Of a stretch of 64,000 bases of DNA, positions 31,420 to 49,627 are shown one piece after another. The notes under the pieces are model-generated. The model saw nothing but the letters and a program-made list of their open reading frames with translations, made no database searches and was not told the origin of the DNA. Position 1 is the first letter of the stretch; every line of letters starts with the position of its first letter. A program made the translations under genes and the position numbers. This DNA is from Nitrospiria bacterium (GTDB lineage Bacteria > Nitrospirota > Nitrospiria > JACQBZ01). The stretch spans positions 19,720 to 83,719 of the forward strand of contig DATKAN010000061.1 of the NCBI GenBank assembly GCA_035498035.1, given 5' to 3'.

Positions 31420-34400
31420 ATGAAACGCTTCCGTTTTGATGTGATCGTCATCGGCTGCGGACCCGCCGGCGCCTCGGCTGCCGTGACACTGGCCCGGGCC
31501 GGACTGTCCGTTCTTGTATTGGAAGCCGGGGTTTATGCCGGCGCCGAAAACTGGTCCGGTTGCGTTTATTTCGCGGAAAACCTGGCGGAACCGGATGCAT
31601 TCGGAGAGGCCGCCGTCACGGCCGCCCCTTACGAACGCCGGTTGGTGCGTAGGGGAATATTCCTGCACAACGGGCTGGATCTGGTCGGTCTTTCCTATCA
31701 AAACCAAGATACCTTCCGTCATTGTTACACGGTTCTTCGTCCCGTTTACGATCCTTACTGGGCCGACAAGGTCCAGACCCAGGGAGCGATGCTGCTGCCG
31801 CAAACGACCGTCACCTCCCTGATCCGAAGGGGCGGTCGCGTGGTCGGCGTCGAAACCGAACACGGGCCGGTTTATGCCGACGTAACCTTTATCGCCGAAG
31901 GCGATGCGTCCCATCTCATCCGGCGTGAACGGTTGGAGCGCGTTAGCGAGCCCCACTTCATGCAAGGAGTTAAGGCGGTTCTCAGCCTTCCGCCGACCGT
32001 AATTGACGAGCGCTTCCATCTCTCCCCGGGAGAAGGCTGTGCCCATGAATACCTGATTCGGAACGGGCAGATGGGCGGACAGACGGCTCATCTGAACATC
32101 GGCGCCTTTCTCTACACCAATCGGGACAGCCTTTCGTTCGGTTACGTGGTACCGCTTGAAAACTTAAAAGAAGCTTATCGCGGCGACCACAGCCGCCTGC
32201 TTGAATGGCTACGCGGCCTCCCCCATTTTAAGCCGCTTCTAAAGGACGCCGCTTTATCGGCCTACGGAACCAAGCTGATTCGCAGCGGCGGCTTAAGAGA
32301 ACAACCGCTGCTTGTCGAAGACGGCCTTGCCGTCGGCGGCGCCGCAGCCGGCTTGGGGATCGATCTCCCCTATCCGAATTTCACAGGTCCTTCCTCGGCC
32401 AGCGGTCTGTTATTCGCCCGTGCCGTTCGCGGACTTCTCCATGACGGTCAATCAATCACGGCAGACCGCCTTCGGCAGAGTTATCTCGAGCCTTTGCAGG
32501 CCAGCGTCTACGGTCAAAATGCCGCGTTCTTGTCGTCTTGGCCCGAATATCTCGAAAACAGCCGGACCTTTTTCGGACGATCGGCCGACCTGGCCTGCGG
32601 ACTGGTCCATTTTCTGACCCAGCCGAATGCCCGCTTATGGCAGGCCGCCCGTTTCCTGCGAGGCCACCTGTCGATCCGGACGCTTCGGGAAGTTTTCGGA
32701 GACGCCGCGCATATGATCCGGGCATCGGGACTCAAGTCGGCGCTTTCCGCCAGCCTGAAACCTTATCTGCTGGGTCGATGGACGGCCGCTCTTTTCAGAC
32801 CGGGATTGAAGGCGCACCCCGGCTTTCAATTCCGGATCGAAATCCTGGACCGGCCGGCGGTGGATATTCAAAAATTTCCCTGGCCGCTCCGTCCTGTGCT
32901 GACGAGATTGTTGCCCGGGTTGGCCGAGGGGATGAAGATCGTCTACGCCAACGACGGCAGGCCTTTATCCGAGAAGTTCCGCGAGGCCTCCCGCAGCGTT
33001 CTCGAACGATTGAAAATTACCGATGGAATCACCCTCCCGGTCTTCGTTCTGTTCCTCGCGACTCTGGCTTTGGTGTCTGTTTTATTCGACTTCATCCGGT
33101 ACTACCTGTTCCGACAGCCGGTCGAGAAGGTTTTGGGCGGACCCGTAACGGATTACCTTCATACCCAACAAACGCTGAGGGACCTGGATCAGGCCAAGAC
33201 GGTCGATTCGTTCGAGGCGAAACTGGCCACCAATTCCTACCGTCTGGGACACCGTTCCCACATCCGCGTCCTCTGGCCGGAGGAGCTCGCGCATCACGGA
33301 GACCTGGCCCAATCCTCCCTCTGGTCGGTCTGCCCGGCACGGGTCTACCAGTACGATCCGCCCCTGGTCGGACGCGGCGTGGTAATGGTCAATTATGAAA
33401 ATTGCATCAAATGCGAATCGTGCTGGCATGCCGCGGGGGATCAAGTGCGCTGGGGACGGCACACCGATCATCGCCTGATCTACAGGCCCGACTCGGAATC
33501 CATTCAGATTCTATTGGGTCAAAAACCTCCATCGAGCCCCCCACGCCCCCCGCGCGAAGAATCGGGACCCAGACCCGATCCCAAGCCGGGGGTTTCCATA
33601 CAAGGCCCGCATCGAGAAATTCTTGCCGCCCTCTCCGATTCGCTCGCATCCGTTTTCCGGGCCGTTTGCGCGTTTGAGACCGCCGTGGAACACATCCCCG
33701 CCTCCGCCGATGCGACCCGACGCGAATGGCCCAGAAAAATTGGGGGGATGACGACCCAGCGGATGGGCGCGCTTGCATCCCTGCTCTCATCCGAAAAAAT
33801 AACCGAGGCGTTTTCGGTCTCCGGATTTTCGGATCGGATCAGGATGGAATGGCATCAGATTCTCCAGGAGGACGGAAAGGATCTCGAACTTCAGTTGTCC
33901 GCCGGGCAGGAGTTCCATGCCTTATCGGCGGCCCGCCGAATTCGGGAGGAGGTTGTCCGTCCGATGATCGAAGCGGTGGATGCCATCCTTCCGCCTTCCG
34001 ATGGAATGATGGGAGACCGGGACCGAAGGCCTCCCGAACCGAATCTTGGCGATCGGATCGCGGCGCTGTTTCCGGACCGCATCGTGAAAGAGTGGGAAAA
34101 TTCCCCGATCCCATCGGATGCCCGCGAACGGCTTCATTATCTTTTCATGGAATATGCCGATCGACCGACATCTTTGATTCGAGCTCTCTCGTCCACGAGT
34201 CCGGCCTTGGGACTGCTGGCCGCCGGCCACACCGAGGCCTTGACGATTCTCAGGCAAACGGGGCAGCCTCTCCGCGGGGATTTGTGCGCCATAGACGCTC
34301 AGGTCCTATCGATCCAAAACGCAAAGGAGGGTCCCATCATCGATGGGGTCGTCGAACTTGTCCCGCTCTCCCTATCCAAGGGGCTGTTGATCGTTTGTGA

Positions 34401-37400
34401 TAACGAAGCCTGGCAGGTTCCCCTTGGACAGCCGGGGCTTAAAACGACCCCGACGCCGGCCGTCGGGTTCCGATCGGCCGGACTTCATCGATTGGAATTC
34501 AAGGCTGTCAAGGCTCATGGACCGGCGCTTCCCGTCGGCGACGGTCGGCGCTTCGGGACGGATTATGCCGCCGTCGCCCTTGGAACGGCGGATTACCTGG
34601 CCCGTCGCGTCAAGGAGCATGCGGATGGCCGCGTGCAGTTCGCCCACCAGATGCGGGACACGCAGGGCAGGGACGGAATCGCCAAGCTGGGCGCGGTCAA
34701 GGCCATGATCGCACGCATCGAAGCCTGGCACCTCCTCCTCACCGTGCTTTTGGAGGAGGGCATCGATCCCGGCCCGCCGGAGCATTTCCCGGGATGGCCG
34801 GACCTCTGCGCGACGGTCGCGACCCTGGCCTTCGGGCCCCAGGCGGGACAAATGGGATACGACGCCGGCCAGGTCTTCGGAGGGTTTGCCTATTCCGAGG
34901 ACGATCTTCTGTCCCGCGCCTACCGGGACAGCGCATTGTTTCGGTTTCTGCCCGCGGGCTTCGGCGCCGCGGAACGCCTGATGCGCCGCCTTCAGGAAAA
35001 TCGCGACGCCCTTGAATCCGCGGTCGCCTCAAGGAACCGTCTGTGGAATGAAGTTCGAAAGGGCCCCTTGGCCGACACGGCGACACGATGGGATGAAACG
35101 ACTAAGCGCTGGATGGGGCTCTCCTCCGAATGCGATCCGGCCCTCTCCGGCGAGGCGGGCGCATTGCTGTTGGGGGCGCACCGGGTTCTGTGCCAGGTGC
35201 AGCAGAAACTCGAGCAGGCGCTTCCGGTCGAAGGAGAGGCGGCCTCGAGCGCGGTCGTGATCCATCTGGCCGAACAGGCCGTGGACGCGATGGAGTTCCG
35301 GCGGCGAGACTCTCCCCTCCTGCCCATCGCGGTTTTTCCGGAAAGGCCCGCGGCCGAGCGGGTGGAACTGCCAATGTCATACGAGGCGATCTGCAATCCT
35401 TCGTCCGCCGGATCATCCCAGCCTTATCAATCCGGTCAGTATTTGCTCGCGCCCCTTGATCCCTCGGTCCGCTTCGTTCCCGAAGTCCAATTGCACGATC
35501 CCTCGCTTCGCGATCGATGGCAGGGCTGCACCGACTGGTTCCTCGAGCATATCTGGACGAAGAGTTTCGATGGAATGCATATCGAAAGATATGTGGAGAA
35601 AATCCACGGAATACCGGACGGCACGCTCGAAGGGTTCAAGAAGAACGGATATTTTTCAACGGTCATTCCCTCGGAGCTGGACGGCGGCGGCTGGTGGAAG
35701 GCGGAATATTATATCCTGACGACGGCGGCCGGCCGTTTCGGCGACGCCGGTTTGTTGCTTGTGATCATGGCCAGCACCAGCATCGGAACGACGCCGATGC
35801 TCCTCGGACTGGAAAAGGAGCTGCCGCTTGCGGTCCAGGAGCTGGAACCGCTGGCCCGCGATCCGCAACAGCTCGGAGAGATCGGGGATCGCTTGGACCG
35901 GCTGATCGCCGGAATGAAACGGCCGGACCCCGCCCGTCTGAAAAAGGGGTTCACGGAATTGATGTCCCTCGTCGATTCGCGGATCCGCCACACCCGCGTG
36001 GTGAAATACCTGGCGGCGAATTTTCTTAAGACTTTTTACGCCGCCGCCATCGCGGGTCAACGCCGGGACCTGGAAGGATTCCGCCGGGGTCTGGCGGAGG
36101 CCAAACCCCTGTTTGACATCCTGGCGCCGACCATCCGGCTGGCGGTGGACGAATTGCCGCGACGCGAACGGGCCCATCAATTTTTCTTAAAGAAACTCGG
36201 GCACGGAGGAATCAGCGCCTTTGCCTTGACCGAGCCGACGGCCGGCTCCGACACCGGCGGGGTGAAGACCACGGCCCGTCCGATGAGCCGCCCCCTGACC
36301 TCTCTCGAGGATGGGCGCTATCGTTTCAGCTTGACGAATGATGAAACCCCAAATCATCCTTCGCTGCGTTACATCATCGACGCCGACCGGGTCCGCTTCG
36401 ACGACCGGTCCGGTCCGTCGGGAATGGTTTACGAGCTTCCCACGGGAGAGGGCGTTCCGATCCGATGCGACGAGTACAACTATGACACGGATGAGGGCCT
36501 GCGCTATTATGTTTTTCGTGGCCAAAAAATATATTTTCATGACATCGCCCAGATCCGGGTCCGAGACGGAAAACCGGTCTACGATTTCTACGAATTAAAC
36601 GGCGCCAAGATGTGGATCACCAACGGTCGCGTGGCCACGCAGTACTGTCTCTACGCCCAGTCACCGGAAGGGGTGACGGGCTTCATGGTGGACCGCCATG
36701 CCGAGGGATTGAAGGTCGGGGCCGATGAGCGGAAGATGGGCCAACGAGGCTCGCCCACGAACGAGATCGCGATCGACCAGGTCCGAGTTCCCAAGGAATG
36801 TATCATCGGCTATGAAGGCCACGGTCAGGTCAACGCGCTCGAGACGCTCAATGTCGGCCGCTGCGGACTGGCCGTCGCCTCGATCACGCTGATGCGAAAG
36901 CTTCTCCTCGACGCCATCGAGCAGGTTCCCTCGACCCCGCGGCGCGATCGGCTCCTGGGAGAAGCCGCGGCCATCCTGTTCGGATCGGATTCGATGACCT
37001 TTCACCTGGTCGGCCTCTTTGATCGTCATACGACCGAATCGGTCCGGATGGAATCGGCGATCGCCAAGTATGTCTGCTCGGAGGATCTGCACGAAGTGAT
37101 GACGTTGATCGAGGAGGCCTACGGCCCCGTCGGCGTCACCGAACGATACCGCGTAGAAAAGCTCCGGCGCGACTCCCGGATCCTGAATATCTATGAAGGC
37201 ACGAACGAGGTTCAGCGCTTCCTCATCCTGAAAGATCTCGTCGCCCTGTCGAAGGAATGGAAGCCGATCCCGTTTCCGGAGAATTCGGAGCCTCCGTCCC
37301 GCCTGGCCTTCTGGAAAGAACTGCTTCGCGGACATGTCGCGGCCGCCGCGGAACCTTTGGGCGACACCGTCTGGATGGACGCGGTGCTTCAGCCCACCTT

Positions 37401-39489
37401 TTTCCTGTTGGCCGATATGGCCGGCGAGATCTTTCGTCTGGACTGTCTGACTTATCGCATCGGTTGGCTGAAAGACAATCGCGATAAGCTGGGAGAGGCC
37501 TATACCGACCCTCTTCTGATGCTGGGCGAACGGGCCGTATGGCGAACCGAACGACGGCTGGAACGGCTCGATCGACGTTATCGTCGGGAGGCGGAGCGAC
37601 CGGCGAAGGGCCTCTACGCCCCGGAGGCGATCGCGGCCGATGTCGCTCTGGAGCGGATGGGGAAGAAACCGACGGCCGAACCAAGGCCGGAGGGCCGACT
37701 GGAACGACCGCTTCGGATTCTCTGTCTGCTCCGACGGGTGGCCGATATCGCTCCCACCCCGCGGCTCAGAGAAGGACACCTGTCCGAAATCGTTTGGCGT
37801 TTAAACCCCTCCGACGAAGCCGCGGTCCGCATGGCGACCGGCTTAAAAAAGACCGGCGGCTCATCCAAGACGGTTCATATCGCATTGTCCGGGGGACCCG
37901 AAGCCGAACCCCAGCTCCGCTGGGCCCTGGGGTACGGGGCCGACGCGGCCTACCGCATCGACGCATCCGCGACGGCCGACGGCTCCGCTTGGATCGAGGC
38001 GATTACCCTTCTTGAAAAATCCGGAAAGTACGACCTGATTCTGACCGGGTCCGCCTCGGAAGACGGCGCCGAGGCCCTCGGGCCTTTCGTGGCCGGTGCC
38101 CTGTCGCGCCATTTTGGGAGGGCCTCTTCCATGGAGATCGTGGAGGAGGGCCGCGGGCTTGCGGTCCGGTCGGGCGCGGATGACTCGAAGATCAAGGTGC
38201 TTCCGACGGAGCCCTTGGTCCTGGCTTGGGAAGGATCCGACGCCCCCCGTCCCATGGAGATCAACCGATTGATCGAGGGGAGGCTGGCCCCCATCCGGCG
38301 CTTATCGGTTCAGGAGAAGGTGGTCCCCGAACGATTATCCCCCGCCCGTACGGTCGTCCGCAAAAGCGAAACGATCCGTGAGCTGGGCGGGGTGGCCGAG
38401 TACCTTGACGCCTATCGGGTCGGAGTCCGGGCGATGGAGGCCGAGCCCTATCGATCGAGGATCGATTCTATGCCCCTTCCGACCGGACCGGCGGTCTGGA
38501 CAATTATTGAAGCGCAGCAACGCAAGATGATTCCGGCCCTGCTGGGCGCGGCCAATTTCCTGGGACGGTCTCTGGAACTGAACAGCTATGCCGCGGTATT
38601 GGGGCCGGAGGAGACCTGGCCGCAGCTGAGCGGCCTGGCACAGGCCCGCGGCTTGACCGGGACGGTCTGCATTCCGGCTCCCGAAGGTCTGTTGACTGAA
38701 TCCGGCCGGATGGAATGGCTTGAAAACTTTTCAAGCGTTGTCCCGAATATCCGGATCGTCTGCGGCCCGCACTGGTCCGATGCCCTTGCGCATTTGTCGG
38801 GACGTATCAACGGCAAAGGCTCCCTGCTTTTCACCGAGGTGACCGAGATCGACCGACGCGAGGGCCTCTCGCTTTTTAAACCGGCCTACGGGGGGAAATT
38901 GCGGCGATCCGTCAACCCGGTCCTTTCGCAGACCCCCCATTTGCTTATGACGGTCTCCCCGACCGCCGATTTTCCGTCGGGCGAACCCTCGGCCCGATTC
39001 GCGGCCGGGAAGGCGGAGGTAAAAACAATCGCTGTCAATCCCGACCGCTTCGAATCCGTGCCTCCGCTTTCCCTGGATGACCTGGCCTCGGCCGAGGTGA
39101 TTATCGACATCGGATACGGCGTCCGGAATCAGGAAGGATTTCATCTCGTGGGCCGGCTCAAGGAGGCTATGGAACATTTGGGCCTGACGGTTCATCTCGG
39201 CGCGACGCGCAAAGTGACCCAAGATCTTAAACTCCTCCCGCTTTCGCACCAGATCGGCCAGACCGGGGCGAGGGTGAATCCGAAATTGATTCTCGCGCTG
39301 GGCATTTCCGGGGCGCCACAGCACATGGACTACATCGGCGACCGCGCCGTGATCTTCGCCTTCAACAAAGACCCCCAGGCCCCGCTCATGAAACTCAACG
39401 AAACCCGCCCGGCACCCGTCGTCCATCCGATCGTCGGCGATCTTTTCGTTACCATTCCGAAATTGATCGAGATGCTGTCGGCAAAATAA
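31420..39489 (+). CDS. Giant fusion: ETF:quinone oxidoreductase (FixC plus FixX-like 4Fe-4S) - degenerate ACAD - VLCAD-like acyl-CoA dehydrogenase - ETF-beta - ETF-alpha (~2,690 aa)
   Basis: One uninterrupted frame containing VIVIGCGPAG (31441); CPARVY...NCIKCESC (33331-33423); FALTEPTAGSD (~36226), LNGAKMWITNG (~36598), IYEGTNEVQR (~37189); ETF-beta LNPSDEAAV...ALGYGAD; ETF-alpha GATRK, QIGQTG, GISGAPQH, NKDPQAP. Start at ATG 31420 after AAAGGA. Confidence 0.85.
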   Translation: MKRFRFDVIVIGCGPAGASAAVTLARAGLSVLVLEAGVYAGAENWSGCVYFAENLAEPDAFGEAAVTAAPYERRLVRRGIFLHNGLDLVGLSYQNQDTFRHCYTVLRPVYDPYWADKVQTQGAMLLPQTTVTSLIRRGGRVVGVETEHGPVYADVTFIAEGDASHLIRRERLERVSEPHFMQGVKAVLSLPPTVIDERFHLSPGEGCAHEYLIRNGQMGGQTAHLNIGAFLYTNRDSLSFGYVVPLENLKEAYRGDHSRLLEWLRGLPHFKPLLKDAALSAYGTKLIRSGGLREQPLLVEDGLAVGGAAAGLGIDLPYPNFTGPSSASGLLFARAVRGLLHDGQSITADRLRQSYLEPLQASVYGQNAAFLSSWPEYLENSRTFFGRSADLACGLVHFLTQPNARLWQAARFLRGHLSIRTLREVFGDAAHMIRASGLKSALSASLKPYLLGRWTAALFRPGLKAHPGFQFRIEILDRPAVDIQKFPWPLRPVLTRLLPGLAEGMKIVYANDGRPLSEKFREASRSVLERLKITDGITLPVFVLFLATLALVSVLFDFIRYYLFRQPVEKVLGGPVTDYLHTQQTLRDLDQAKTVDSFEAKLATNSYRLGHRSHIRVLWPEELAHHGDLAQSSLWSVCPARVYQYDPPLVGRGVVMVNYENCIKCESCWHAAGDQVRWGRHTDHRLIYRPDSESIQILLGQKPPSSPPRPPREESGPRPDPKPGVSIQGPHREILAALSDSLASVFRAVCAFETAVEHIPASADATRREWPRKIGGMTTQRMGALASLLSSEKITEAFSVSGFSDRIRMEWHQILQEDGKDLELQLSAGQEFHALSAARRIREEVVRPMIEAVDAILPPSDGMMGDRDRRPPEPNLGDRIAALFPDRIVKEWENSPIPSDARERLHYLFMEYADRPTSLIRALSSTSPALGLLAAGHTEALTILRQTGQPLRGDLCAIDAQVLSIQNAKEGPIIDGVVELVPLSLSKGLLIVCDNEAWQVPLGQPGLKTTPTPAVGFRSAGLHRLEFKAVKAHGPALPVGDGRRFGTDYAAVALGTADYLARRVKEHADGRVQFAHQMRDTQGRDGIAKLGAVKAMIARIEAWHLLLTVLLEEGIDPGPPEHFPGWPDLCATVATLAFGPQAGQMGYDAGQVFGGFAYSEDDLLSRAYRDSALFRFLPAGFGAAERLMRRLQENRDALESAVASRNRLWNEVRKGPLADTATRWDETTKRWMGLSSECDPALSGEAGALLLGAHRVLCQVQQKLEQALPVEGEAASSAVVIHLAEQAVDAMEFRRRDSPLLPIAVFPERPAAERVELPMSYEAICNPSSAGSSQPYQSGQYLLAPLDPSVRFVPEVQLHDPSLRDRWQGCTDWFLEHIWTKSFDGMHIERYVEKIHGIPDGTLEGFKKNGYFSTVIPSELDGGGWWKAEYYILTTAAGRFGDAGLLLVIMASTSIGTTPMLLGLEKELPLAVQELEPLARDPQQLGEIGDRLDRLIAGMKRPDPARLKKGFTELMSLVDSRIRHTRVVKYLAANFLKTFYAAAIAGQRRDLEGFRRGLAEAKPLFDILAPTIRLAVDELPRRERAHQFFLKKLGHGGISAFALTEPTAGSDTGGVKTTARPMSRPLTSLEDGRYRFSLTNDETPNHPSLRYIIDADRVRFDDRSGPSGMVYELPTGEGVPIRCDEYNYDTDEGLRYYVFRGQKIYFHDIAQIRVRDGKPVYDFYELNGAKMWITNGRVATQYCLYAQSPEGVTGFMVDRHAEGLKVGADERKMGQRGSPTNEIAIDQVRVPKECIIGYEGHGQVNALETLNVGRCGLAVASITLMRKLLLDAIEQVPSTPRRDRLLGEAAAILFGSDSMTFHLVGLFDRHTTESVRMESAIAKYVCSEDLHEVMTLIEEAYGPVGVTERYRVEKLRRDSRILNIYEGTNEVQRFLILKDLVALSKEWKPIPFPENSEPPSRLAFWKELLRGHVAAAAEPLGDTVWMDAVLQPTFFLLADMAGEIFRLDCLTYRIGWLKDNRDKLGEAYTDPLLMLGERAVWRTERRLERLDRRYRREAERPAKGLYAPEAIAADVALERMGKKPTAEPRPEGRLERPLRILCLLRRVADIAPTPRLREGHLSEIVWRLNPSDEAAVRMATGLKKTGGSSKTVHIALSGGPEAEPQLRWALGYGADAAYRIDASATADGSAWIEAITLLEKSGKYDLILTGSASEDGAEALGPFVAGALSRHFGRASSMEIVEEGRGLAVRSGADDSKIKVLPTEPLVLAWEGSDAPRPMEINRLIEGRLAPIRRLSVQEKVVPERLSPARTVVRKSETIRELGGVAEYLDAYRVGVRAMEAEPYRSRIDSMPLPTGPAVWTIIEAQQRKMIPALLGAANFLGRSLELNSYAAVLGPEETWPQLSGLAQARGLTGTVCIPAPEGLLTESGRMEWLENFSSVVPNIRIVCGPHWSDALAHLSGRINGKGSLLFTEVTEIDRREGLSLFKPAYGGKLRRSVNPVLSQTPHLLMTVSPTADFPSGEPSARFAAGKAEVKTIAVNPDRFESVPPLSLDDLASAEVIIDIGYGVRNQEGFHLVGRLKEAMEHLGLTVHLGATRKVTQDLKLLPLSHQIGQTGARVNPKLILALGISGAPQHMDYIGDRAVIFAFNKDPQAPLMKLNETRPAPVVHPIVGDLFVTIPKLIEMLSAK

Positions 39490-39609: not shown

Positions 39610-40050
39610 ATGAATCCACCGATTCCCCTCCGATCCCCGCGCGAAATGCTGGGCGGGTATGTTTTTCTTCCGCGATTGATCGACAAGGTCCGGCTGCACG
39701 CGCAAGGAAAACTCCCGCCGGAATATGTCGGCAATCTCCTCAAACCGGGATTGACTCTGGACGGACGCTTGCTTACGTTTACCGGGCTGAATGCGGAGGC
39801 GTTGCGTCGTGCAATCCTGACCTCGAAGACGGACGTCGAGATCTTTGCCTGGGTCGAGCGACATGCAAAGCCCCATACTGAGGGCGAGAAGCGGCAATGG
39901 ATCGCGGAGATCGAGTCCTATCGGCCGAATCCGGAAACAGCCCGATGGCGAAGGGAGACTTACAAGGAATTGGCCGCCCGGATCGATCCGGCTACGCTGA
40001 GCCTGTTTGATCTGATCGACATGGACGAAGGCCGGATTCCCCCACCATGA
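39610..40050 (+). CDS. DUF5069-like protein
   Basis: LRSPREMLGGYVFLPRLIDKVRLHAQGKLPPEY...LDGRLLTFTG...FDLIDMDEGR (recalled family pattern). Confidence 0.7.
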   Translation: MNPPIPLRSPREMLGGYVFLPRLIDKVRLHAQGKLPPEYVGNLLKPGLTLDGRLLTFTGLNAEALRRAILTSKTDVEIFAWVERHAKPHTEGEKRQWIAEIESYRPNPETARWRRETYKELAARIDPATLSLFDLIDMDEGRIPPP

Positions 40051-41900: not shown

Positions 41901-41928
41901 CGGGCGTCCCGGCGGTCTCAACAATAAC

Positions 41929-42702
41929 TCAGAATATCAATACGGCGGCGATATGAACAATCAACGTGAAGGCGAGAATCCAAATAAACGGTACATGAAG
42001 CTTGTGCCAGTAGGAAAAAAGGCTTGTTGTGGCCTCCAGGGCCGAAACGTTCTTCTCGAGACGAATCCGCTTCACAATCAGGAATTCCAACGAGTCCGAT
42101 GACTTCATGGGATTTATGACAGGCATCCGGCCCTGGGAGCGGGAAAGCCGCCTGAGCTGCCTTCTCACCTTTTTCTCAAGACGGTCCAATCGGATCAGCA
42201 GGAAGAACGGCCCGAAGAACCCACGTGATTTTTTCTTTTCTCGACGGCTGAAAAAAGTTTGGATGGTCTCGAGGATGGTTTGCGATTCTGAAACTCGTTG
42301 GGAGATATTTCGATCCAATTGTTCGATTTCCTGGATCATCTCCTTTAATGTGGCCCGTTCCCCCGATAGAGAAAACTGGAAATGCCGATAAATATAGCGA
42401 CCGAATACGCCGCTGGCCACAACGATCAGCATCGCATAAAAGGCGATGGCCGCGTTGGGGGACTTGATGAAAAAACCGGTGTGGTACACGACCAAGAGCG
42501 GCCCGAGGATGCATAGCGTGATGTGGATGTCCAACCATCGGCTCATGTTTCCCAGACTTCGGAGCACCCGGATCCTTTTACGCAGCGCATACAAGAAGGC
42601 GCCCAAAAACATCATGGTGGACCCAATAATCCCGAGCATCAACGGAACAAATGATTTCGGGGAATAGGGATGCCCTGAAAAATAAATCGGCAGGGCGACC
42701 AC
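41929..42702 (-). CDS. Inner-membrane protein with conserved-looking His residues in TM helices (cytochrome b-like, PCC3 IMP-type); start uncertain
   Basis: WLDIHITL, VVYHTGF, WHKLHVP, LIVHIAA in hydrophobic segments; located between the porin and cytochrome genes. Confidence 0.72.
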   Translation of the reverse strand: MVALPIYFSGHPYSPKSFVPLMLGIIGSTMMFLGAFLYALRKRIRVLRSLGNMSRWLDIHITLCILGPLLVVYHTGFFIKSPNAAIAFYAMLIVVASGVFGRYIYRHFQFSLSGERATLKEMIQEIEQLDRNISQRVSESQTILETIQTFFSRREKKKSRGFFGPFFLLIRLDRLEKKVRRQLRRLSRSQGRMPVINPMKSSDSLEFLIVKRIRLEKNVSALEATTSLFSYWHKLHVPFIWILAFTLIVHIAAVLIF

Positions 42703-42830
42703 CGCGGCGCATCCGAATATTAGAATTAAAAGTCTGATGGGACCCTCTTTTCCATCTCATGAATGGACGCTTAAAGCCAAGGACAGGCCCCAAAGCGTCT
42801 TTCAGCGTTTCGGAACAACACGACCGGGCC

Positions 42831-44666
42831 TCAGAACGGAATCGTGAGGCTGGTTCGGGTTTCCACCGTCGTCACCGTTCCGTTTGTGGTGTTGTTCTTA
42901 TCCATGTCGTAATCGGCGTCAAGGCTGAGCGAAATCCCGCTCCCGAAGGTGTAGATCAATGTGAATCCGGGGATGAGCCGCGTCGATTGGGTGGCGGAGG
43001 TTTTTATTTCAAAACGCTCCCAACGGCATCTCAAGGACGTTTGAAATTCTGGGCCCAAGTACTTTGAAAAGGTTCCCGTCACCGTTGTCGTTTGATAATC
43101 GGTCGTCGGCTGGAAAAGATAGAGCACTGTTCCAACCTCCGACCAGTGGAGCCCGTTTCGCTCGCTGAGAAAGACCGAATAGCGATCACCCTTCTTATCC
43201 GCCTTTCCGTCGTTGAAAACGATCGCCTGGAAGATCGTATGGGCGTACCTTAAATCGAGATGCCAGACCTTCGAAAAATCGACGGTGGTTCCCAGTCTGG
43301 CCTCCCGCGAATCGGTCGTATTTTTCAATGCGAGGGCCTGGAGATCGTTTCGTGTCAAAGTTTGCCGCGCAGCATCGAGCGACGTGATCGGCGGTGTTAT
43401 CAACGCGAGGGAGGGATCGATCAACGCCGTTTCGTAATCCAGAAAAGGATTCTTTCGATATTCGACCGCCGCGGAATACGAAGCGATCGCGTAATGGTAT
43501 TCAAAACTCAGTAATTTGTCGTTGAAATCTTTGAAGGCCAGGTCATAGTCCACTATGGAGGAAATGTTGATTGGATCATTCAACCAGTACCCGTTCAGTC
43601 CGACCGCATTTCGCGTTGAAAAACCGTTGTTGAACTCCTGGGTATAATAGATTTTTCCTCCAAGATGATAGAGATCATAGATCGAAAGGTAGGTATCGTA
43701 AAACAGGCGATCGTGCTGAATCTGGATTTTATTTCGATCGAACGGGTCGACCGCATAACCGACGCTGGTCGTCAAACCGAGCGTGTTGAAGGGCCGGAGA
43801 CCGAAGGCCAGTCCATCAAAGCGACTGAATAAGGTATTCCCGGAAGCCGGTTGTCGTCCGATGCGGAGGTCGACCATGGAACGAGGGTCGGACCAGTCCG
43901 CGAAAATTTTATTGAGTCTGTAGAAGGAGTTATCGGGGGTCAGAAAATCATCCGAATTCATACCGGAAAAATAGATTTTTAAATCCCCTCCGGCCGACTT
44001 CCTCCAGCGGAAATCCAAATATTCGTTCAAGCGGTTTTGTACCGTGGGAGTGGGGTCCGCCGGGGATGTTTGAGTATCATTATAATACTCCAACGTAAAA
44101 GCGCCGGAAAATTTTCCAAATGGGGCCGTTTCCTGTCGACGCACCGGAGAGAAAACCGGTTGAGGGGGGGTGCCTTGATTGCTGCCCGGGAGACTCTCCG
44201 ACTGAACCGCCGCACTCGACGGGCCGGTAGAAGGACCGTTCACAGAATCCGACCCGGTTGTCAGAGCCGCCAACCTCGCTTTTACTTCAGGGATATGTCT
44301 GCTTGAAGGAAAATTGCTGGTAAATAGCGTGTACTGCTGCACGGTGTCATTCCGTTTGCCCTGTTCATCCGCAATCCGGGCCAGGTACCATTGGGCCTCC
44401 TCCAAACCGGAGGGGTCCGTTTTCGTATCGATGAATCTATTGAAGATTACACGGGCCCGTTCTAAATCTCCTTTTTCAAACGCGTTGACCCCTTCCGCAA
44501 AATTTATCGACGGGCCGGAATCGGTTTTCAAAATGGGTTTGTTTCTACTCAAAGAACAACCGATCATCGTCAAAAAAAAAGTGGCCAACGCGAGACAAAA
44601 TGCCGCACGCGAGAGAAAAAAAACCCATCGTTCCACGGGGGCGTTAAAAACGACTGTAGTCAGCAT
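42831..44666 (-). CDS. Outer-membrane beta-barrel with N-terminal lipobox-like signal and TPR domain (porin of a porin-cytochrome conduit)
   Basis: FFLTMIG-C, TPR-like AQWYLARIA, Pro/Ser linker, alternating aromatic beta-strands, C-terminal ...SLTIPF. Start at ATG 44666 or GTG 44636. Confidence 0.72.
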   Translation of the reverse strand: MLTTVVFNAPVERWVFFLSRAAFCLALATFFLTMIGCSLSRNKPILKTDSGPSINFAEGVNAFEKGDLERARVIFNRFIDTKTDPSGLEEAQWYLARIADEQGKRNDTVQQYTLFTSNFPSSRHIPEVKARLAALTTGSDSVNGPSTGPSSAAVQSESLPGSNQGTPPQPVFSPVRRQETAPFGKFSGAFTLEYYNDTQTSPADPTPTVQNRLNEYLDFRWRKSAGGDLKIYFSGMNSDDFLTPDNSFYRLNKIFADWSDPRSMVDLRIGRQPASGNTLFSRFDGLAFGLRPFNTLGLTTSVGYAVDPFDRNKIQIQHDRLFYDTYLSIYDLYHLGGKIYYTQEFNNGFSTRNAVGLNGYWLNDPINISSIVDYDLAFKDFNDKLLSFEYHYAIASYSAAVEYRKNPFLDYETALIDPSLALITPPITSLDAARQTLTRNDLQALALKNTTDSREARLGTTVDFSKVWHLDLRYAHTIFQAIVFNDGKADKKGDRYSVFLSERNGLHWSEVGTVLYLFQPTTDYQTTTVTGTFSKYLGPEFQTSLRCRWERFEIKTSATQSTRLIPGFTLIYTFGSGISLSLDADYDMDKNNTTNGTVTTVETRTSLTIPF

Positions 44667-45807
44667 GCTCGTGACAATTGGCGCACATGGCATCAAGCGC
44701 GATGGACCGATGGTTCTCGTTCGGCCTGTAATCACGCGTGTGGCAGTTCGCGCACGCACCATACTGGGTGCCGTCCCGGTAAAACGGGGTCGAAAAATTT
44801 TGCGGGTGACAGACCGAGCAGTCCAGAGGAGCATGACCCCCGATTAATTTAGGGTTATCATGGGTCGCATAAGTGGCGGGGGTCCAGCCGGTCGTCTTAT
44901 GACAGGTGTCGCATTGAAGTGTGACCCCGGCGTGGTTTGCAGGCTTTCCGGTCGCCACCTGACCGTTGTGACAGTTCGAGCACTGCCCGGCCGCACTGGC
45001 ATCGTGAACATAGCCCGCGGGGGTCCATCCCGTCGTCTTATGACAGGTGTCGCACTGCGCCGTGGTCGGGACATGGTTCTGCGGCTTGCCAGTCGCATTT
45101 TGGCCGTTATGGCAGTTCGAGCACTGCCCGGCGGTGCTGGCATCGTGAACAAAACTCGTGGGGACCCATGCCTTCGTCTTATGACAGGTATCGCACTGCG
45201 CCGTGGTCGGGATGTGGTTCTGGGGCTTGCCCGTCGCCTTTTGGCCGTTGTGACAGTTCGAGCACTGCCCGGCCGCGCTGGCATCGTGGACATAGCCCGC
45301 GGGGGTCCATCCCGTCGTCTTATGACAGGTGTCGCACTGCGCCGTGGTCGGAACATGGTCCTGCGGCTTGCCCGTGGCCATCTGGCCGTTGTGACAGGTG
45401 GCGCACTGGCCGGCAACCAGAGCAAGATTATGATTAAAGGTTGCAGGTGACCAGGCATTGACGGAATGACAGACATTACATCCCTGATTCGTCATAATGT
45501 GATTCTGCGGCTTTCCATAAGAAATCTGATCATTATGGCAATTTTCACACTCCCTGGGAGTCGCACTATACTGCCCCCCCAAATGACACTGGGAGCATTT
45601 CAAGCCTCTATGCGCACCCAGAAGCTGAAAAGAGGTAGCATCATGATTGAAATTGGCTGGCGGCTCGTAATCGGCTGAACTTTTTGAGGACCTGCTCGTT
45701 GTTTCAGGTGTCGCCACTTGGTAGGAGAGAAAAACCATTCCCAAGATAATGCCTGTCAGAGCGGCCATAACAACAAAACCGGGTCTCCATATTGAAGACT
45801 GCCTCAT
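44644..45807 (-). CDS. 14-heme c-type cytochrome with tandem 47-aa diheme repeats
   Basis: 14 CXXCH motifs counted; N-terminal hydrophobic segment; SD AGGGGA before ATG 45807. Confidence 0.92.
   Translation of the reverse strand: MRQSSIWRPGFVVMAALTGIILGMVFLSYQVATPETTSRSSKSSADYEPPANFNHDATSFQLLGAHRGLKCSQCHLGGQYSATPRECENCHNDQISYGKPQNHIMTNQGCNVCHSVNAWSPATFNHNLALVAGQCATCHNGQMATGKPQDHVPTTAQCDTCHKTTGWTPAGYVHDASAAGQCSNCHNGQKATGKPQNHIPTTAQCDTCHKTKAWVPTSFVHDASTAGQCSNCHNGQNATGKPQNHVPTTAQCDTCHKTTGWTPAGYVHDASAAGQCSNCHNGQVATGKPANHAGVTLQCDTCHKTTGWTPATYATHDNPKLIGGHAPLDCSVCHPQNFSTPFYRDGTQYGACANCHTRDYRPNENHRSIALDAMCANCHEHADYSRF
44875..45414 (-). repeat. About four intragenic 141-bp tandem repeats
   Basis: GGGTCCATCCCGTCGTCTTATGACAGGTGTCGCACTGCGCCGTGGTCGG recurs at 45021 and 45303, with related copies at 44880 and 45162; spacing exactly 141 nt. 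Confidence 0.92.
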
Positions 45808-45829
45808 TTTGTTTTCCCCTATTTCAGAC

Positions 45830-45864
45830 AAAAAAATAGCCGCCAAAGGATTTCCTCTGGCGGC
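45830..45864 (-). terminator. Intrinsic terminator forming the riboswitch expression platform
   Basis: Minus strand GCCGCCAGAGG-AAAT-CCTTTGGCGGC-TATTTTTTT; the 5' arm overlaps the 3' strand of aptamer P1. Confidence 0.85.
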
Positions 45865-45952
45865 CCGGCGAGCATGTCCCAAACCTTAAATTCGGGAGTT
45901 AGCCCCGTTGCACTGCGTCCCCATCTTTCGATGGGTTTGCTCTGATCAAAGG
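45854..45952 (-). ncRNA. GEMM-I (c-di-GMP-I family) riboswitch aptamer, A20 variant (candidate 3',3'-cGAMP sensor)
   Basis: Minus strand CCTTTG ATCAGA GCAAA CCCATC GAAA GATGGG GACGCA GTGCAACGGGGCTAA CTCCCGAA..TTTGGGA CATGCTCGCCGGGCCGC CAGAGG. It shows a 6-bp P1 (CCUUUG/CAGAGG), a GAAA tetraloop P2, a CUAA/CAUG receptor, and C44, A47, G83, C92 equivalents. Confidence 0.85.
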
Positions 45953-45992
45953 TTTTTATTATTAAATTCTATTAATTTACACTTTTGGGAAA

Positions 45993-46020
45993 ATTTTACC
46001 AAATTTATTATATTTGTCAA
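45993..46020 (-). promoter_or_regulatory. Sigma70 promoter for the riboswitch / cytochrome operon
   Basis: Minus strand TTGACA-N16-TAAAAT with extended TGn; about 40 nt upstream of the aptamer. Confidence 0.65.
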
Positions 46021-46168
46021 GTGCTAAATTTATAATAGTTAATTTTCAGTAAGATTGGATACAGTATAGCACCTAATTCAATTCGTGGAGACACCCAATC
46101 GCTGCTGTGACGCCTTGGCGCTTGGAAATGGACTGGAGTATAATGATTTAATAAACGGGAGGTGATGC

Positions 46169-47443
46169 ATGGCTGAGGCGGTGATCATTGAGGGTATCCG
46201 AACCCCGTTTGCGAGGTCGGGGTCGGTTTTCAAAGATATCCCGGCCGAGGAGTTGGGAAGACTCGCCGTCCACGAACTTATAGAGAAAACCGCACTGGAT
46301 CCGAAGATTGTCGATGAAGTCATCATTGGAACGGTCAGCCAGATGGTCGACACAGCCAACGTTTCGCGAGTCATCGCACAGCGCGCCGGCCTCCCCCCCC
46401 GCGTGCCGGCCTATACCGTCAACCGAAACTGCGCCTCGGGCCTGGAGGCGATCGGAAGCGGGTTGGAAAAGATTCGGGCGGGAATGGCCGATGTCGTCAT
46501 CGCCGGCGGTGTCGAGTCCATGAGCAATATTCCGATCTTCTATTATGGTAAGCGCATGACCGAAATACTCGTCGACGCTTCGAAGGCCAAAACGTTGGGG
46601 CAGAAGATTGCGAAGTTCGCGTCGCTGCGCCCCCGCGATCTGAAACCGAGCGTCATCAGCCAAACCGATCCGCTCAACGGCATGCGGATGGGGGACACGG
46701 CCGAGGTGCTGGCGAAAGAATTCGGGATCCCAAGAGAAGAGCAGGATGCCTTTGCCTTGATGAGCCATCAGCGGGCCGTCGCAGCCCGGTCCCGTCTTTC
46801 GGAAGAGATCACCCCCGTCTATCTTCCCCCCCGGTATGACACCGTGGTCAAGAACGATGCCGGCCCGCGGGAAAATCAAAAAATCGAGGATTTGGCCCGT
46901 CTGAAACCGGTTTTCGATCGTCGATACGGCTCGGTCACGGCCGGTAACGCATCCCCTCTGACGGACGGAGCCGCCGCACTTCTGATCATGAACGAGGAAA
47001 AGGCCCGTGCGATGGGGTTTAAGCCGCTTGGTCGCATTCGGAGCTATGCCTATGCCGGCCTGGATCCTGCGAGGATGGGGCTGGGACCGTCTTTTGCAAC
47101 CCCTTTGGCCCTGGACCGGGCCGGGATGAAATTTTCGGATATTGAACTGATCGAGATGAACGAAGCGTTCGCGGCGCAGATTCTGGCGAATGAAAAAGCA
47201 TTCGCCTCGAAAAAGTTCGCTCAGGAACATCTGGGACGCAACGAACCGATCGGGGTGATCGATCGAAGCCGGTTTAATGTCAACGGGGGTGCGATCGCTC
47301 TCGGCCATCCGCTCGGCGCGTCCGGCGCCCGCCTGATGCTGACCCTGCTATACGAGCTGCGACGGAGAAACCAATCCATCGGTTTGGCGACCCTTTGCGT
47401 TGGCGGTGGACAGGGCGCGGCCTGCATCGTTGAGAGGAGATAA
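46169..47443 (+). CDS. Acetyl-CoA C-acyltransferase (thiolase, FadI/FadA type)
   Basis: NRNCASG (catalytic Cys), MNEAFA, GHPLGASG, LCVGGGQG; SD GGAGGTG. Confidence 0.95.
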   Translation: MAEAVIIEGIRTPFARSGSVFKDIPAEELGRLAVHELIEKTALDPKIVDEVIIGTVSQMVDTANVSRVIAQRAGLPPRVPAYTVNRNCASGLEAIGSGLEKIRAGMADVVIAGGVESMSNIPIFYYGKRMTEILVDASKAKTLGQKIAKFASLRPRDLKPSVISQTDPLNGMRMGDTAEVLAKEFGIPREEQDAFALMSHQRAVAARSRLSEEITPVYLPPRYDTVVKNDAGPRENQKIEDLARLKPVFDRRYGSVTAGNASPLTDGAAALLIMNEEKARAMGFKPLGRIRSYAYAGLDPARMGLGPSFATPLALDRAGMKFSDIELIEMNEAFAAQILANEKAFASKKFAQEHLGRNEPIGVIDRSRFNVNGGAIALGHPLGASGARLMLTLLYELRRRNQSIGLATLCVGGGQGAACIVERR

Positions 47444-47449
47444 AAGATT

Positions 47450-49627
47450 ATGACCCCGGAGAAATGCCTTCGCACCACGATCGATGACCGCGGCCTTTGC
47501 CATGTGGAAATCGATGTCCCGGGAAAAACGGTCAATTTGATCTCGCCTCGGGTTCTTACGGAACTTGAGCAAGCGATTGATTCCATCCGGTCCGATCCCA
47601 GGATTAAAGGCGTCATTTTCCTGAGCCGTAAACCCGACCACTTTATCGGCGGGGCCGAGATCGACGTCCAACGATTCCTGAGCGATCTTGACGCCACATT
47701 GATTTTTATAAAACAAGGCCGCGATGTTTATCAAAGAATCGCCGAGCTCTCCGTCCCGACGTTGGCGGCGATCCATGGGGCCTGTCTGGGGGGGGGACTG
47801 GAATTGGCCTTGGCTTGCCGTTACCGTCTGGCGAGCGACCACCGGAAGACGCGTCTCGGCCTGCCGGAAGTCTTGCTCGGAATCTTCCCGGGCTGGGGCG
47901 GAATAACCCGGCTCCCCCGTCTGACCGGGCTTTCGGCGTCGCTTGACCTGCTCCTGACGGGCAAACAGCTCGATGCGAGGCGAGCTGAGCGAATCGGGTT
48001 GGTGGACCGCATCCTCACCTCCAAGGAGATCCAGATGCAGGCCGATACTTTTATGCTCGAGTGCCTAACGCAGGGGGCCTCGCTTCATCGGAAAATTCAA
48101 TCGGCCCGACGGCGCTCTCAAAACAAAATCCTGGCGCGCTTCTTGAACGAAACCCCTCTCGGCCGGGCTTTGGTATTTCATCAAGCCCGTAAAAACGTCA
48201 TGAGGCTCACCCTGGGACGCTATCCCGCTCCGCTGAAGATTATCGACGTGGTCCGAAAGGGAATCGGAGGTCCGCTCGAACGATCGTTGGAGCTCGAGCA
48301 GGAGGGGCTCCATGCGCTTATTCGTGAAGAAACCACGCAGAACCTGATCCATGTCTTTTCAATACGAAGGCACGCCGGAAAACTGCCAAAGGAGATTACC
48401 CCCTCCGATCTCGTCCCGCCGATTCGGAAAGTGGGTATCCTTGGGGCCGGCGTGATGGGCGCCGGCATAGCCCAATGGATGCTCCAACAGGAGATTCCGG
48501 TGCGCCTGAGAGACATTCACGAGGAGGCGATCGCAAAGGGTGTCAAGACCGTTAACGAGGCCTTTGAAAAGCAGGTCTCCCGGCGGAGAATCCGCCGGGA
48601 AGAAAAAGAGAACCGGATGCGACTTCTTTCAACCACCACAGACTATTCCGGTTTTTCGACGTGTGACCTGGTTATCGAGGCCGTGGCCGAAAAGATGGAA
48701 GTCAAACAACGGGTGATCCGCGACCTTCAAGAGGCGGCCGGGGATCGAGCGATCTTCGCCACAAACACCTCTTCGCTTTCGATCACGGACATGGCTGAGG
48801 GCGCAAAGAGACCGGACCGCGTATTGGGGCTTCATTTTTTCAATCCGGTCGCGCAGATGCCGCTCGTAGAGGTCGTTAAAGGAAAAATGACCTCCGACGA
48901 GACACTGGCCGCCGGTGTAGTCTTCGTCAAAAGAATCGGTAAAACGCCTCTGGTCGTTTCGGACAGTCCCGGCTTTCTGGTTAACCGGATCCTGATGGCC
49001 TACGGGAATGAGGCCGGGCTTCTTTTAGAAGAAGGGGCTACGGTCGATCGGGTGGACCGCGCCATGGAGGTTTTCGGAATGCCGATGGGTCCGTTTACCA
49101 TGATGGACGTTGTGGGGCTGGACATCGCCCATCACACAGCCGAATCGATCCGAACGTCCCTTCATCTGGATCCGGCCGAGCAATCCCGGATCGGCGATCG
49201 GTTATTCGGAGCCGGAAGATTTGGAAAAAAGACCGGACAGGGTCTCTATCGATACGAAGGCAGGGAAAAACGCCCCAACCCCGAATTGGACACGATGCTG
49301 GCGGCGATACGAAAAGAACGCGGACTGACTCCGCGAGCGAATATAAACGATCAAGAAATAACCGATCGTCTCGTGATGATCATGGTGAATACAGCCGCTT
49401 GGTGTCTCGAGAAGCGGATCGTTCAGTATCCGGGAGATGTCGATCTCGGAATGATAATAGGCGCTGGTTTCCCCCCATTTAGGGGAGGATTATTAAAGTA
49501 TTGTGATAAGATTGGAATTGGAAGGATTAAAGAAACGCTCGACCGTTATTCCCAATCCGCCGGTCCCCGCTTCTCTCCGGCTCAAATGATCACCGATCTT
49601 GCCAAGCAGGCCGATGGGTTTTATTAG
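47450..49627 (+). CDS. fadJ: Fatty-acid oxidation complex alpha subunit (enoyl-CoA hydratase plus 3-hydroxyacyl-CoA dehydrogenase, FadJ type)
   Basis: CLGGGLELALAC, GLPEVLLGIFPGWGG, GILGAGVMGAGIA, IEAVAEKMEVK, FATNTSSL, LHFFNPV, PGFLVNRIL. Confidence 0.92.
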   Translation: MTPEKCLRTTIDDRGLCHVEIDVPGKTVNLISPRVLTELEQAIDSIRSDPRIKGVIFLSRKPDHFIGGAEIDVQRFLSDLDATLIFIKQGRDVYQRIAELSVPTLAAIHGACLGGGLELALACRYRLASDHRKTRLGLPEVLLGIFPGWGGITRLPRLTGLSASLDLLLTGKQLDARRAERIGLVDRILTSKEIQMQADTFMLECLTQGASLHRKIQSARRRSQNKILARFLNETPLGRALVFHQARKNVMRLTLGRYPAPLKIIDVVRKGIGGPLERSLELEQEGLHALIREETTQNLIHVFSIRRHAGKLPKEITPSDLVPPIRKVGILGAGVMGAGIAQWMLQQEIPVRLRDIHEEAIAKGVKTVNEAFEKQVSRRRIRREEKENRMRLLSTTTDYSGFSTCDLVIEAVAEKMEVKQRVIRDLQEAAGDRAIFATNTSSLSITDMAEGAKRPDRVLGLHFFNPVAQMPLVEVVKGKMTSDETLAAGVVFVKRIGKTPLVVSDSPGFLVNRILMAYGNEAGLLLEEGATVDRVDRAMEVFGMPMGPFTMMDVVGLDIAHHTAESIRTSLHLDPAEQSRIGDRLFGAGRFGKKTGQGLYRYEGREKRPNPELDTMLAAIRKERGLTPRANINDQEITDRLVMIMVNTAAWCLEKRIVQYPGDVDLGMIIGAGFPPFRGGLLKYCDKIGIGRIKETLDRYSQSAGPRFSPAQMITDLAKQADGFY

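Follow-up and report, generated by a model that had tools for sequence, protein, structure and literature searches.

This analysis concerns a 64-kb window (the whole stretch of DNA examined) of contig DATKAN010000061.1 from a Nitrospiria bacterium (Nitrospirota; JACQBZ01), and within it the region from 31420 to 49627. This region carries a giant gene that fuses modules of an acyl-CoA dehydrogenase (ACAD), an electron transfer flavoprotein (ETF) and an ETF:quinone oxidoreductase (ETF-QO), followed by a small DUF5069 gene, a group of four genes on the opposite strand that appear to encode a trans-envelope electron conduit behind a riboswitch, and finally the genes for a thiolase and a FadJ-type protein. 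An earlier reading of the DNA, here called the original prediction, had proposed that all of these form one system carrying fatty-acyl electrons out of the cell, or alternatively that the conduit had been inserted into a fad operon near dif and the linkage was accidental. The fusion protein was used as a query against genome and metagenome collections, which yielded 19 related loci, and all window proteins were mapped onto them. The related loci belong to Nitrospirota genomes that had been assembled from metagenomes of groundwater, or come from metagenomes of soils and wetlands. Contigs 99.94 to 99.98% identical to the window were present in at least 12 wetland metagenome runs (DNA runs), and the loci designated L020 to L024 show this same level of identity. 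Among RNA runs, none was listed for either the conduit or thiolase-fadJ.

The fusion gene lies at 31420 to 39489 on the forward strand and encodes 2,689 amino acids (aa) from the ATG at 31420 chosen by the gene callers; the open reading frame (ORF) extends upstream to 31339, from where it would count 2,716 aa. Its modules were recognized by Pfam and NCBIfam domains and by matches to structures in the PDB, and run in the order FixC/ETF-QO flavoprotein, transmembrane (TM) helix, FixX-like four-cysteine motif, weakly ACAD-like region, ACAD, ETF-beta and ETF-alpha. Residues 30 to 439 are of the FixC/ETF-QO type, with FixC of the FixABCX complex as the top PDB match (7koe_C, E = 9e-34). A hydrophobic TM helix occupies residues 558 to 591, and cysteines like those of FixX and ETF-QO, CPARVY...NCIKCESC, can be read in the translation. 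Approximately 700 aa show a weak likeness to ACAD, and a clear ACAD is found at about residues 1746 to 1968, for which the top PDB matches were CarC and Bcd (E = 1e-32); the motif IYEGTNE, with the catalytic glutamate, is present in the translation. The ETF-alpha and ETF-beta modules are also supported by PDB matches. The fusion was found to hold the full set needed for an ACAD/ETF/ETF-QO chain, namely, the middle and C-terminal ACAD domains with the catalytic glutamate, the FAD domain of ETF-alpha, ETF-beta, the FixC flavoprotein and the cysteine cluster. The closest structural relatives of the fusion are electron-bifurcating complexes (FixABCX, CarCDE and Bcd-Etf).

The ACAD-ETF-ETF-QO fusion is a broad family: a full HMMER scan that took the last 1,200 aa of the protein as query recovered at least 40 clusters (at 50% identity) having members longer than 2,000 aa. 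A literature search of limited extent found no description of such a fusion in Nitrospirota. In the window the gene sits after the htrA terminator with promoter-like elements of its own. Downstream of it, at 39610 to 40050 on the same strand, is a gene for a 146-aa DUF5069 protein (Pfam PF16798, E = 1.7e-40), which follows the fusion in the main clade of relatives and is missing from a deep clade composed of loci L010, L011 and L013.

At the far end of the region, a 424-aa FadI-like 3-ketoacyl-CoA thiolase (46169 to 47443, forward strand; Pfam Thiolase_N and Thiolase_C) is followed by a 725-aa FadJ/FadB-type enoyl-CoA hydratase and 3-hydroxyacyl-CoA dehydrogenase (47450 to 49627, forward strand; Pfam ECH_1, 3HCDH_N and 3HCDH). 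The thiolase passed the TIGR01930 model with 462 bits against a cutoff of 240, and it scored 498.8 bits against the FadI equivalog model, under the cutoff of 560. The FadJ-type protein scored 690.8 bits against the FadJ equivalog model, under the cutoff of 869. By their domains, the two proteins belong to these families, without being verified orthologues of FadI and FadJ. A promoter candidate for the pair, TTGGCG-18-TATAAT, lies at 46115 to 46144 on the forward strand and matches the consensus at 10 of 12 positions. Its -10 block, CTGGAGTATAAT, about 25 nucleotides (nt) before the ATG, is identical in six aligned loci, whether these have nothing, a chemotaxis cassette or the conduit in front of the thiolase. 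In L001, a conduit-less locus, the thiolase (8080 to 9308) has shifts of reading frame near 8373 to 8388 and lacks about 15 aa, which could reflect a pseudogene or an assembly error.

The four genes between these blocks are all on the reverse strand. The first by coordinate (40059 to 41900) encodes a putative periplasmic multiheme cytochrome c (MHC) of 613 aa, identified from the gene call and from its count of 24 CXXCH motifs; its ORF is open to 41924. This Lys-rich protein has a signal peptide, matches Pfam Cytochrome_C7 and c3 and is organized as eight c7-like triheme units with 25.5 aa per heme, and the gene holds internal repeats of 198 nt. Next is the gene for an inner-membrane protein (IMP) of 257 aa (41929 to 42702), which has no Pfam or NCBIfam match and was recognized by its motifs, W56x3H60x13H74, SG97xxG101 and W232x3H236x13H250, all of them invariant in the homologues from L011, L013 and L014. 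A pair of WX3HX13H motifs with SGXXG on a helix between them defines the conserved IMP of the PCC3 and PCC4 types of porin-cytochrome complex (PCC), and has been read as the mark of a diheme-b, quinone-active protein (He et al. 2017, PMC5566968). The motif supports labeling the window IMP as a b-type protein with predicted diheme-b ligands.

The published PCC3 IMP has about 300 aa and five TM helices (PMC5566968). From its first canonical start, the window IMP has four hydrophobic helices. A candidate fifth helix, IRLLILIFGCAAVVALP, lies in frame upstream (42703 to 42790, reverse strand) and has no ATG, GTG or TTG start; the only upstream ATG is out of frame. The sequence upstream of the IMP gene is identical in the independent assemblies L020, L021 and L023, and the L014 version starts with ATG. 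The missing canonical start could be explained by use of a rare start codon, by a frameshift or by a genuine truncation. Distant IMP homologues in Bacteroidota and Gammaproteobacteria, encoded on an Emticicia plasmid (E = 5e-14) and on one from Methylophaga, adjoin cytochrome c genes, and no beta-oxidation genes are annotated near them in the regions shown.

The third gene (42831 to 44666) encodes a 611-aa putative outer-membrane porin-like protein, so described from the gene call and its features only. Its signal peptide carries a lipobox-like ..TMIGC sequence, its N terminus resembles the tetratricopeptide repeats (TPR) of CpoB/YbgF and its C terminus ends in ..SLTIPF; the protein is conserved in L013 and L014. 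The lipobox-like sequence makes it probable that the protein is a lipoprotein, and no TM helix was detected past the signal peptide. Domain searches returned TPR, BamD and YbgF matches, and a PDB profile search with the alignment of this protein returned CpoB only, for the TPR part. An AlphaFold single-sequence model had a pLDDT of 34 and contained no barrel, being uninformative past the N-terminal TPR helices. The sequence features are consistent with, and lead us to infer, a porin role.

The fourth gene (44644 to 45807; ORF to 45882, with the real start at the ATG at 45807) encodes a putative extracellular MHC of 387 aa with 14 CXXCH motifs and 27.6 aa per heme, in which Thr, Ser, Ala and Gly make up 36% of residues. 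It is built of 47-aa diheme repeats, seen in the DNA as 141-nt tandem repeats at 44868 to 45414 that are about 82% identical. Such repeats could let the heme number shift by recombination and may explain the range of 10 to 35 hemes in PCC3 outer cytochromes. The histidine counts of the cytochromes permit bis-His ligation of every heme, and Met residues are few.

PCC3 has been defined as an extracellular MHC together with a porin, a periplasmic MHC with a median of 21 hemes and an IMP (PMC5566968). In the Gallionellaceae, the periplasmic MHC has 21, 24 or 27 hemes and the extracellular one 10 to 35, and copy 1 of Sideroxydans sp. CL21 has 24 and 14 (PMC9900912; bioRxiv 10.1101/2025.02.27.639646). 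We file the window cluster as PCC3 type, an assignment suggested by the IMP signature, the heme counts, the composition and the repeats when set against the published description. The MtrCAB/OmbB-OmaB-OmcB type of PCC and PCC4 were rejected, as the IMP, the 24-heme periplasmic cytochrome and the 14-heme outer cytochrome fit PCC3; PCC4 is described without an extracellular cytochrome (PMC5566968).

Upstream of the 14-heme gene, Rfam identified a c-di-GMP-I (GEMM-I) riboswitch aptamer of 96 nt (45951 to 45856, reverse strand). It scored 59.3 bits against RF01051 (gathering score, 35; E = 4.7e-9), covered model positions 1 to 87 of 87 and was the sole Rfam match in the window. At model position 11, where the consensus is G (G20 of Vc2, just before the G21-C22 pair), the aptamer has A. 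The G20A change marks the GEMM-Ib riboswitches of Geobacter, which sense cyclic GMP-AMP (cGAMP), depend on a terminator and stand in front of extracellular cytochromes (PMC6140456, PMC6456294), and A20 alone can confer binding of both c-di-GMP and cGAMP (PMC6140456). Because the aptamer has A at the G20 position, its predicted ligand is c-di-GMP and/or 3',3'-cGAMP. A candidate expression platform, an intrinsic terminator with a 12-bp stem containing 8 G-C pairs followed by ATTTTTTTGT, was found at 45838 to 45865 on the same strand. Its 5' arm shares 10 nt with the 3' end of the aptamer, a T-run follows the hairpin, and the hairpin is also present in the minimum-free-energy fold (z = -3.7).

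The best promoter-like site between 39.4 and 46.4 kb is a sigma-70-type sequence, TTGACA-16-TAAAAT, at 45993 to 46020 on the reverse strand, which matches 11 of 12 positions and has a TG extension. It is 42 nt upstream of the aptamer, and the ATG at 45807 is 49 nt downstream of the aptamer. The predicted arrangement of this leader is the one classically seen in riboswitches that act through transcription termination, and we infer an ON switch, in which ligand binding would block the terminator. An 18-bp imperfect palindrome, TTGGTAAAATTTTCCCAA, at 45985 to 46002 overlaps the conduit -10 and the likely transcription start, which makes it a candidate operator for a repressor acting alongside the riboswitch. 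Both the L013 and the L014 contig stop within the 14-heme gene, so that the leader region beyond is not covered there.

All components named in the original prediction were found at their stated coordinates. At the level of domains, the fusion, the thiolase and FadJ supply all steps of beta-oxidation except the ligase, as it had claimed; its 24-heme and 14-heme cytochromes agree with exact CXXCH counts; and the riboswitch it had placed before the conduit scores above the Rfam gathering threshold in a leader position. Its b-type membrane protein gained diheme-b motifs, and its porin continues to be read from sequence features, with no barrel seen in the low-confidence model. It had also held that thiolase-fadJ and the conduit share a divergent control region. 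The region is real, measuring 217 nt from the riboswitch to the thiolase ATG, but it contains two separate promoters, and no common operator was found. It is best described as two back-to-back promoters juxtaposed by the position of the conduit; they stand side by side because the conduit cassette sits there.

The organization of the remaining sequence also separates the conduit from the fad genes. The riboswitch is found only on the conduit, the conduit and the fad units are on opposite strands with separate promoters, and regulation shared between them was not found. A motif search detected no operator or motif common to the regions upstream of the fusion and of the thiolase. The DUF5069 and 24-heme cytochrome genes converge (40050 to 40059), with stop codons 8 nt apart and no terminator-like hairpin between them. 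Because no terminator separates these convergent genes, transcription running on past the fusion unit would lie antisense to the conduit genes and be of no help to coexpression, and the transcripts may overlap.

The conduit, together with its riboswitch and promoter, fills a variable slot of 6.1 kb (40051 to 46121) that has no counterpart in conduit-less relatives. In blastn comparisons with L001, L006, L012, L015 and L017, homology to the window ended at 40034 to 40055 and restarted at 46122 to 46132. In the window and in L004, L014 and L016, whose fusions are 82 to 90% identical, the conduit is present in the same place, convergent and with DUF5069. In L010, L011 and L013, whose fusions are 57 to 65% identical, it lies directly after the fusion without DUF5069. 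In L001 and L015, DUF5069 is followed directly by the thiolase across 8 to 32 unaligned nt; L001 continues from the thiolase into fadJ and then shares with the window the genes that lie further downstream, and the L015 contig stops inside the thiolase. In L006, L012 and L017, the genes for a methyl-accepting chemotaxis protein (MCP) and a LivK-type substrate-binding protein stand between DUF5069 and the thiolase. Unrelated genes are found downstream of the fusion in L002 and L007. The co-occurrence of conduit and fad genes is accordingly not conserved, with the conduit present in 7 of the 14 informative close relatives, an empty slot in 2, the MCP cassette in 3 and other genes in 2.

With 51 to 81% identity, the conduit proteins have diverged in step with their hosts. 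As the conduit occupies the same place in the clade with 57 to 65% identical fusions and its proteins have diverged, the adjacency is old. As a control for synteny, we considered the unrelated upstream genes DUF4388, TrkA-C and htrA, which keep their order even in L005 (58% identical). Therefore, adjacency in this lineage is weak evidence of function. Taken as a whole, the comparison suggests that the proximity of conduit and fusion is specific to this lineage, old but dispensable, and does not reflect a recent one-off insertion.

Recent arrival is nonetheless one way to read the slot, in which the conduit would be a mobile island inserted horizontally into an intact fad operon. The sharp boundaries of the slot and its alternative cassettes agree with this idea, as do its location near a dif-like site and the GC content of the conduit (0.51 to 0.535), which is lower than that of the fusion (0.59 to 0.62). 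However, we rejected GC content as a sign of transfer, given that the window itself spans 0.46 to 0.62 and includes the conduit values. No convincing direct or inverted repeats flank the slot, and no integrase, transposase or other recombinase ORF was found in or beside it; the slot did not show the marks of a mobile island, namely flanking repeats, an integrase or transposase, or a tRNA target. The age of the adjacency also argues against this explanation, and we regard it as very unlikely.

The dif-like XerCD site itself is at 28355 to 28382 on the reverse strand. Its core, ATAATGTATATTATGT, is matched exactly at 28362 to 28377, where 0.24 matches would be expected by chance. The full site, TCTGATAATGTATATTATGTAAACT, agrees at about 18 of 22 positions with the E. 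coli dif sequence. Flanked by the DUF4388 gene and the ORF that follows, it is approximately 3 kb upstream of the fusion and approximately 12 kb from the slot, and is present at the same syntenic place in L006 (720 to 735), L008 (318 to 333) and L012 (633 to 648). The cumulative GC skew peaks near 48 to 50 kb and not at this site. The site would mark a terminus-proximal region and fits an indel-prone setting. Insertions other than the conduit are found at the 3' end of the fusion: L001 has a hicB/hicA-like pair (6817 to 7321; 88 and 81 aa, judged by eye from the translations) between the fusion and DUF5069, and L014 has three unrelated small ORFs (861 to 2147) at the place of that insertion. 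These two insertions point to an insertion hot spot. Another indel, of about 1.85 kb, corresponds to window positions 53437 to 55291, which are missing from L001 and include a LuxR/GerE-type regulator (53737 to 54336).

More distant relatives of the fusion were also examined. Eight homologues were drawn from the at least 40 clusters; they were 35 to 48% identical in the C-terminal scan, and all of them align over the full length. In the flanks available, which reach up to 10 kb and are shorter where a contig ends, no gene homologous to those of the conduit, to DUF5069, to the thiolase or to FadJ was found, and the only cytochrome-like features were two small ORFs with three to four CXXCH motifs. 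In a neighbor-joining tree built from 466 columns of the fusion C terminus, L004, which has the conduit, fell within a group (76% bootstrap) whose other members, L006, L007 and L012, lack it; the window was the sister of this group (79%), and L010, L011 and L013 formed a separate clade (100%). Whichever way it is read, the tree calls for several gains or losses.

These observations suggest that the region probably consists of three separate transcription units that are neighbors and not parts of one machine. The first would comprise the fusion and DUF5069 on the forward strand, with the fusion acting as a single-polypeptide acyl-CoA:quinone oxidoreductase in which, judging from the domains, electrons would move from the FAD of the ACAD to that of the ETF, on to a FixC/FixX-like FAD and [4Fe-4S] cluster and finally to membrane quinone. 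The second would be thiolase-fadJ, also on the forward strand, with its own conserved -10. The third would be the PCC3-type trans-envelope conduit, on the opposite strand in the variable slot between the other two. Transcription of the conduit would start at the strong sigma-70 promoter and run into the GEMM-I aptamer that overlaps the terminator; a cyclic dinucleotide (c-di-GMP and/or 3',3'-cGAMP) would hold the aptamer closed, blocking the terminator and turning on the four conduit genes, as in Geobacter GEMM-Ib. Following the published PCC3 model, the IMP would pass electrons to or from the quinone pool, the 24-heme c7 polymer would span the periplasm, and the porin and the 14-heme cytochrome would cross the outer membrane. 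The common quinone pool would be the only route by which electrons from fatty acids get to the conduit, just as for those from any other quinone-reducing dehydrogenase.

Three points weigh against treating the units as mere neighbors. The conduit adjoins the fusion in half of the informative relatives and in two clades, so that the pairing outlasts random insertion; the divergent L010/L011/L013 clade keeps the conduit directly behind the fusion; and a physiological link through the quinone pool is plausible, as both modules are expected to act there.

In a rival reading, a dedicated system would channel electrons from the fusion, thiolase and FadJ specifically, via quinone, the IMP, the 24-heme cytochrome, the porin and the 14-heme cytochrome, toward a mineral or partner cell, and selection for that coupling would have kept the arrangement. 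All of its components are present and adjacent, the adjacency recurs across two clades, the fusion includes a quinone reductase resembling ETF-QO, and the diheme-b motifs of the IMP are of the quinone-active type. However, relatives hold fusion-DUF5069-thiolase(-fadJ) without the conduit or with the MCP cassette instead, and none of the eight distant fusions has a PCC nearby. In addition, the strands and promoters are separate, a cyclic-dinucleotide riboswitch gates the conduit, with no fatty-acid signal in evidence, fusion read-through would be antisense to it, and the IMP homologues elsewhere are tied to cytochromes with no annotated beta-oxidation genes in the regions shown. We consequently consider a dedicated system unlikely. 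The comparative data thus speak against the central proposal of the original prediction, of one fatty-acyl-to-outside system. The synteny check that it had suggested, of fusion homologues with PCC genes, was positive for 7 of 14 close relatives and 0 of 8 distant ones, and the contiguous fusion-thiolase(-fadJ) arrangement without a conduit that it had named in advance as one part of the evidence to the contrary was found in L001 and L015. Its placement of the locus near dif is upheld by the conserved core. The accidental linkage near dif that it had offered as an alternative fits better than the dedicated system, except that the adjacency is too old and too widespread for a recent insertion.

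If, as we think likely, the conduit works apart from the fad genes, electrons could flow through it in either direction. The conduit might run inward, taking up electrons from Fe(II), Mn(II), humics or mineral oxidation, a role originally put forward for PCC3 in iron-oxidizing Gallionellaceae. PCC3 was defined in neutrophilic Fe(II) oxidizers and modeled as delivering electrons taken from a donor outside the cell to the quinone pool (PMC5566968), the iron oxidizer Sideroxydans sp. CL21 has a cluster with the same heme counts of 24 and 14, and in the Nitrospirota family Manganitrophaceae, porin-cytochrome complexes have been proposed as the Mn(II) oxidases. However, the role of PCC3 is unverified even in iron oxidizers, and PCC3 is present in many organisms that do not oxidize iron (PMC5566968). 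The precedent for a GEMM-I(b) riboswitch before a cytochrome is the reductive extracellular electron transfer (EET) of Geobacter, and no sign of autotrophy or lithotrophy was found among the genes of the 64-kb window. The possible bis-His ligation and the few Met residues are typical of low-potential cytochromes, although they do not discriminate. An independent, inward conduit is possible, but we judge it appreciably less probable than independence as such; as to direction, we lean toward outward respiratory flow over inward in this wetland bacterium. A stronger proposal, that the PCC3 conduit is an outward respiratory exit for the oxidation of organic acids or fatty acids, switched on by a cGAMP-type messenger, and that its long-lasting adjacency to the fusion stems from a true physiological coupling, seems improbable to us.

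Beyond the region, the remaining window genes are housekeeping genes (glmU, glmS, gatA/B, eno, era, recO, lepA, lepB, pyrG, a lipid A acyltransferase gene and holB-like genes). Nine kilobases past the region, a gene at 58737 to 60002 (reverse strand) encodes a further cytochrome, of 421 aa, that contains five CXXCH motifs and gave weak NrfA/MtrC-like matches, and it adjoins a gene for a FIST-domain sensor protein (57500 to 58708, forward strand).

What appears to be new here is that a GEMM-I (A20) riboswitch precedes a PCC3-type cluster in a Nitrospirota host, both kinds of element being already known; a literature search of limited extent found no report of this pairing. PCC3 is widespread and its function has never been verified, and here it is linked to a defined and testable input, a 96-nt cyclic-dinucleotide aptamer. 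If the conduit is outward and gated by cGAMP, the riboswitch-to-EET logic of Geobacter would extend to a second phylum, and PCC3, which has been discussed as an iron oxidation device, could be reductive. EET in Nitrospirota has been little explored outside the Mn-oxidizing Manganitrophaceae. The presence or absence of the conduit among close relatives provides a ready natural comparison for wetland metagenomes and metatranscriptomes, and the fusion of about 2,700 aa could serve as a compact model for the entire acyl-CoA-to-quinone chain. Adjacency in a dif-proximal, indel-prone region should not be taken as a fatty-acid-to-mineral pathway.

Compared with the ACAD-to-ETF-to-ETF-QO chain of mitochondria and bacteria, with FixABCX and with Bcd-EtfAB/CarCDE, every module of the chain is present in the fusion. 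In contrast to the ACAD-to-ETF-to-ETF-QO chain, the fusion joins all modules into a single chain about 2,700 aa long and contains the additional weakly ACAD-like region of about 700 aa. The thiolase and the alpha subunit that follows it lie side by side in the same order as in fadIJ of the E. coli-type FadIJ/FadAB systems, but both window proteins fall under the NCBIfam equivalog cutoffs.

The conduit resembles published PCC3 clusters in that its IMP bears both WX3HX13H motifs and SGXXG, its 24/14 heme pair equals that of Sideroxydans sp. CL21 copy 1 and falls within the Gallionellaceae ranges, and its MHCs are repeat rich with few residues per heme, the outer one being rich in Thr, Ser, Ala and Gly. 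In contrast, its host belongs to the Nitrospirota, whereas PCC3 has been described mostly in Proteobacteria; its genes run in the order extracellular MHC, porin, IMP and periplasmic MHC; its IMP has four TM helices from the canonical start where five are published; its putative porin has a CpoB-like TPR N-terminal domain; and a GEMM-I riboswitch stands in front of the cluster. Like the Geobacter GEMM-Ib riboswitches of pgcA, omcAHG and omcST, the window leader places a GEMM-I aptamer with A20 and then a terminator before multiheme EET cytochromes, with a predicted ON logic. It differs from them in the phylum of its host, in a predicted ligand that may be c-di-GMP as well as cGAMP and in its apparent control of a whole PCC3 operon.

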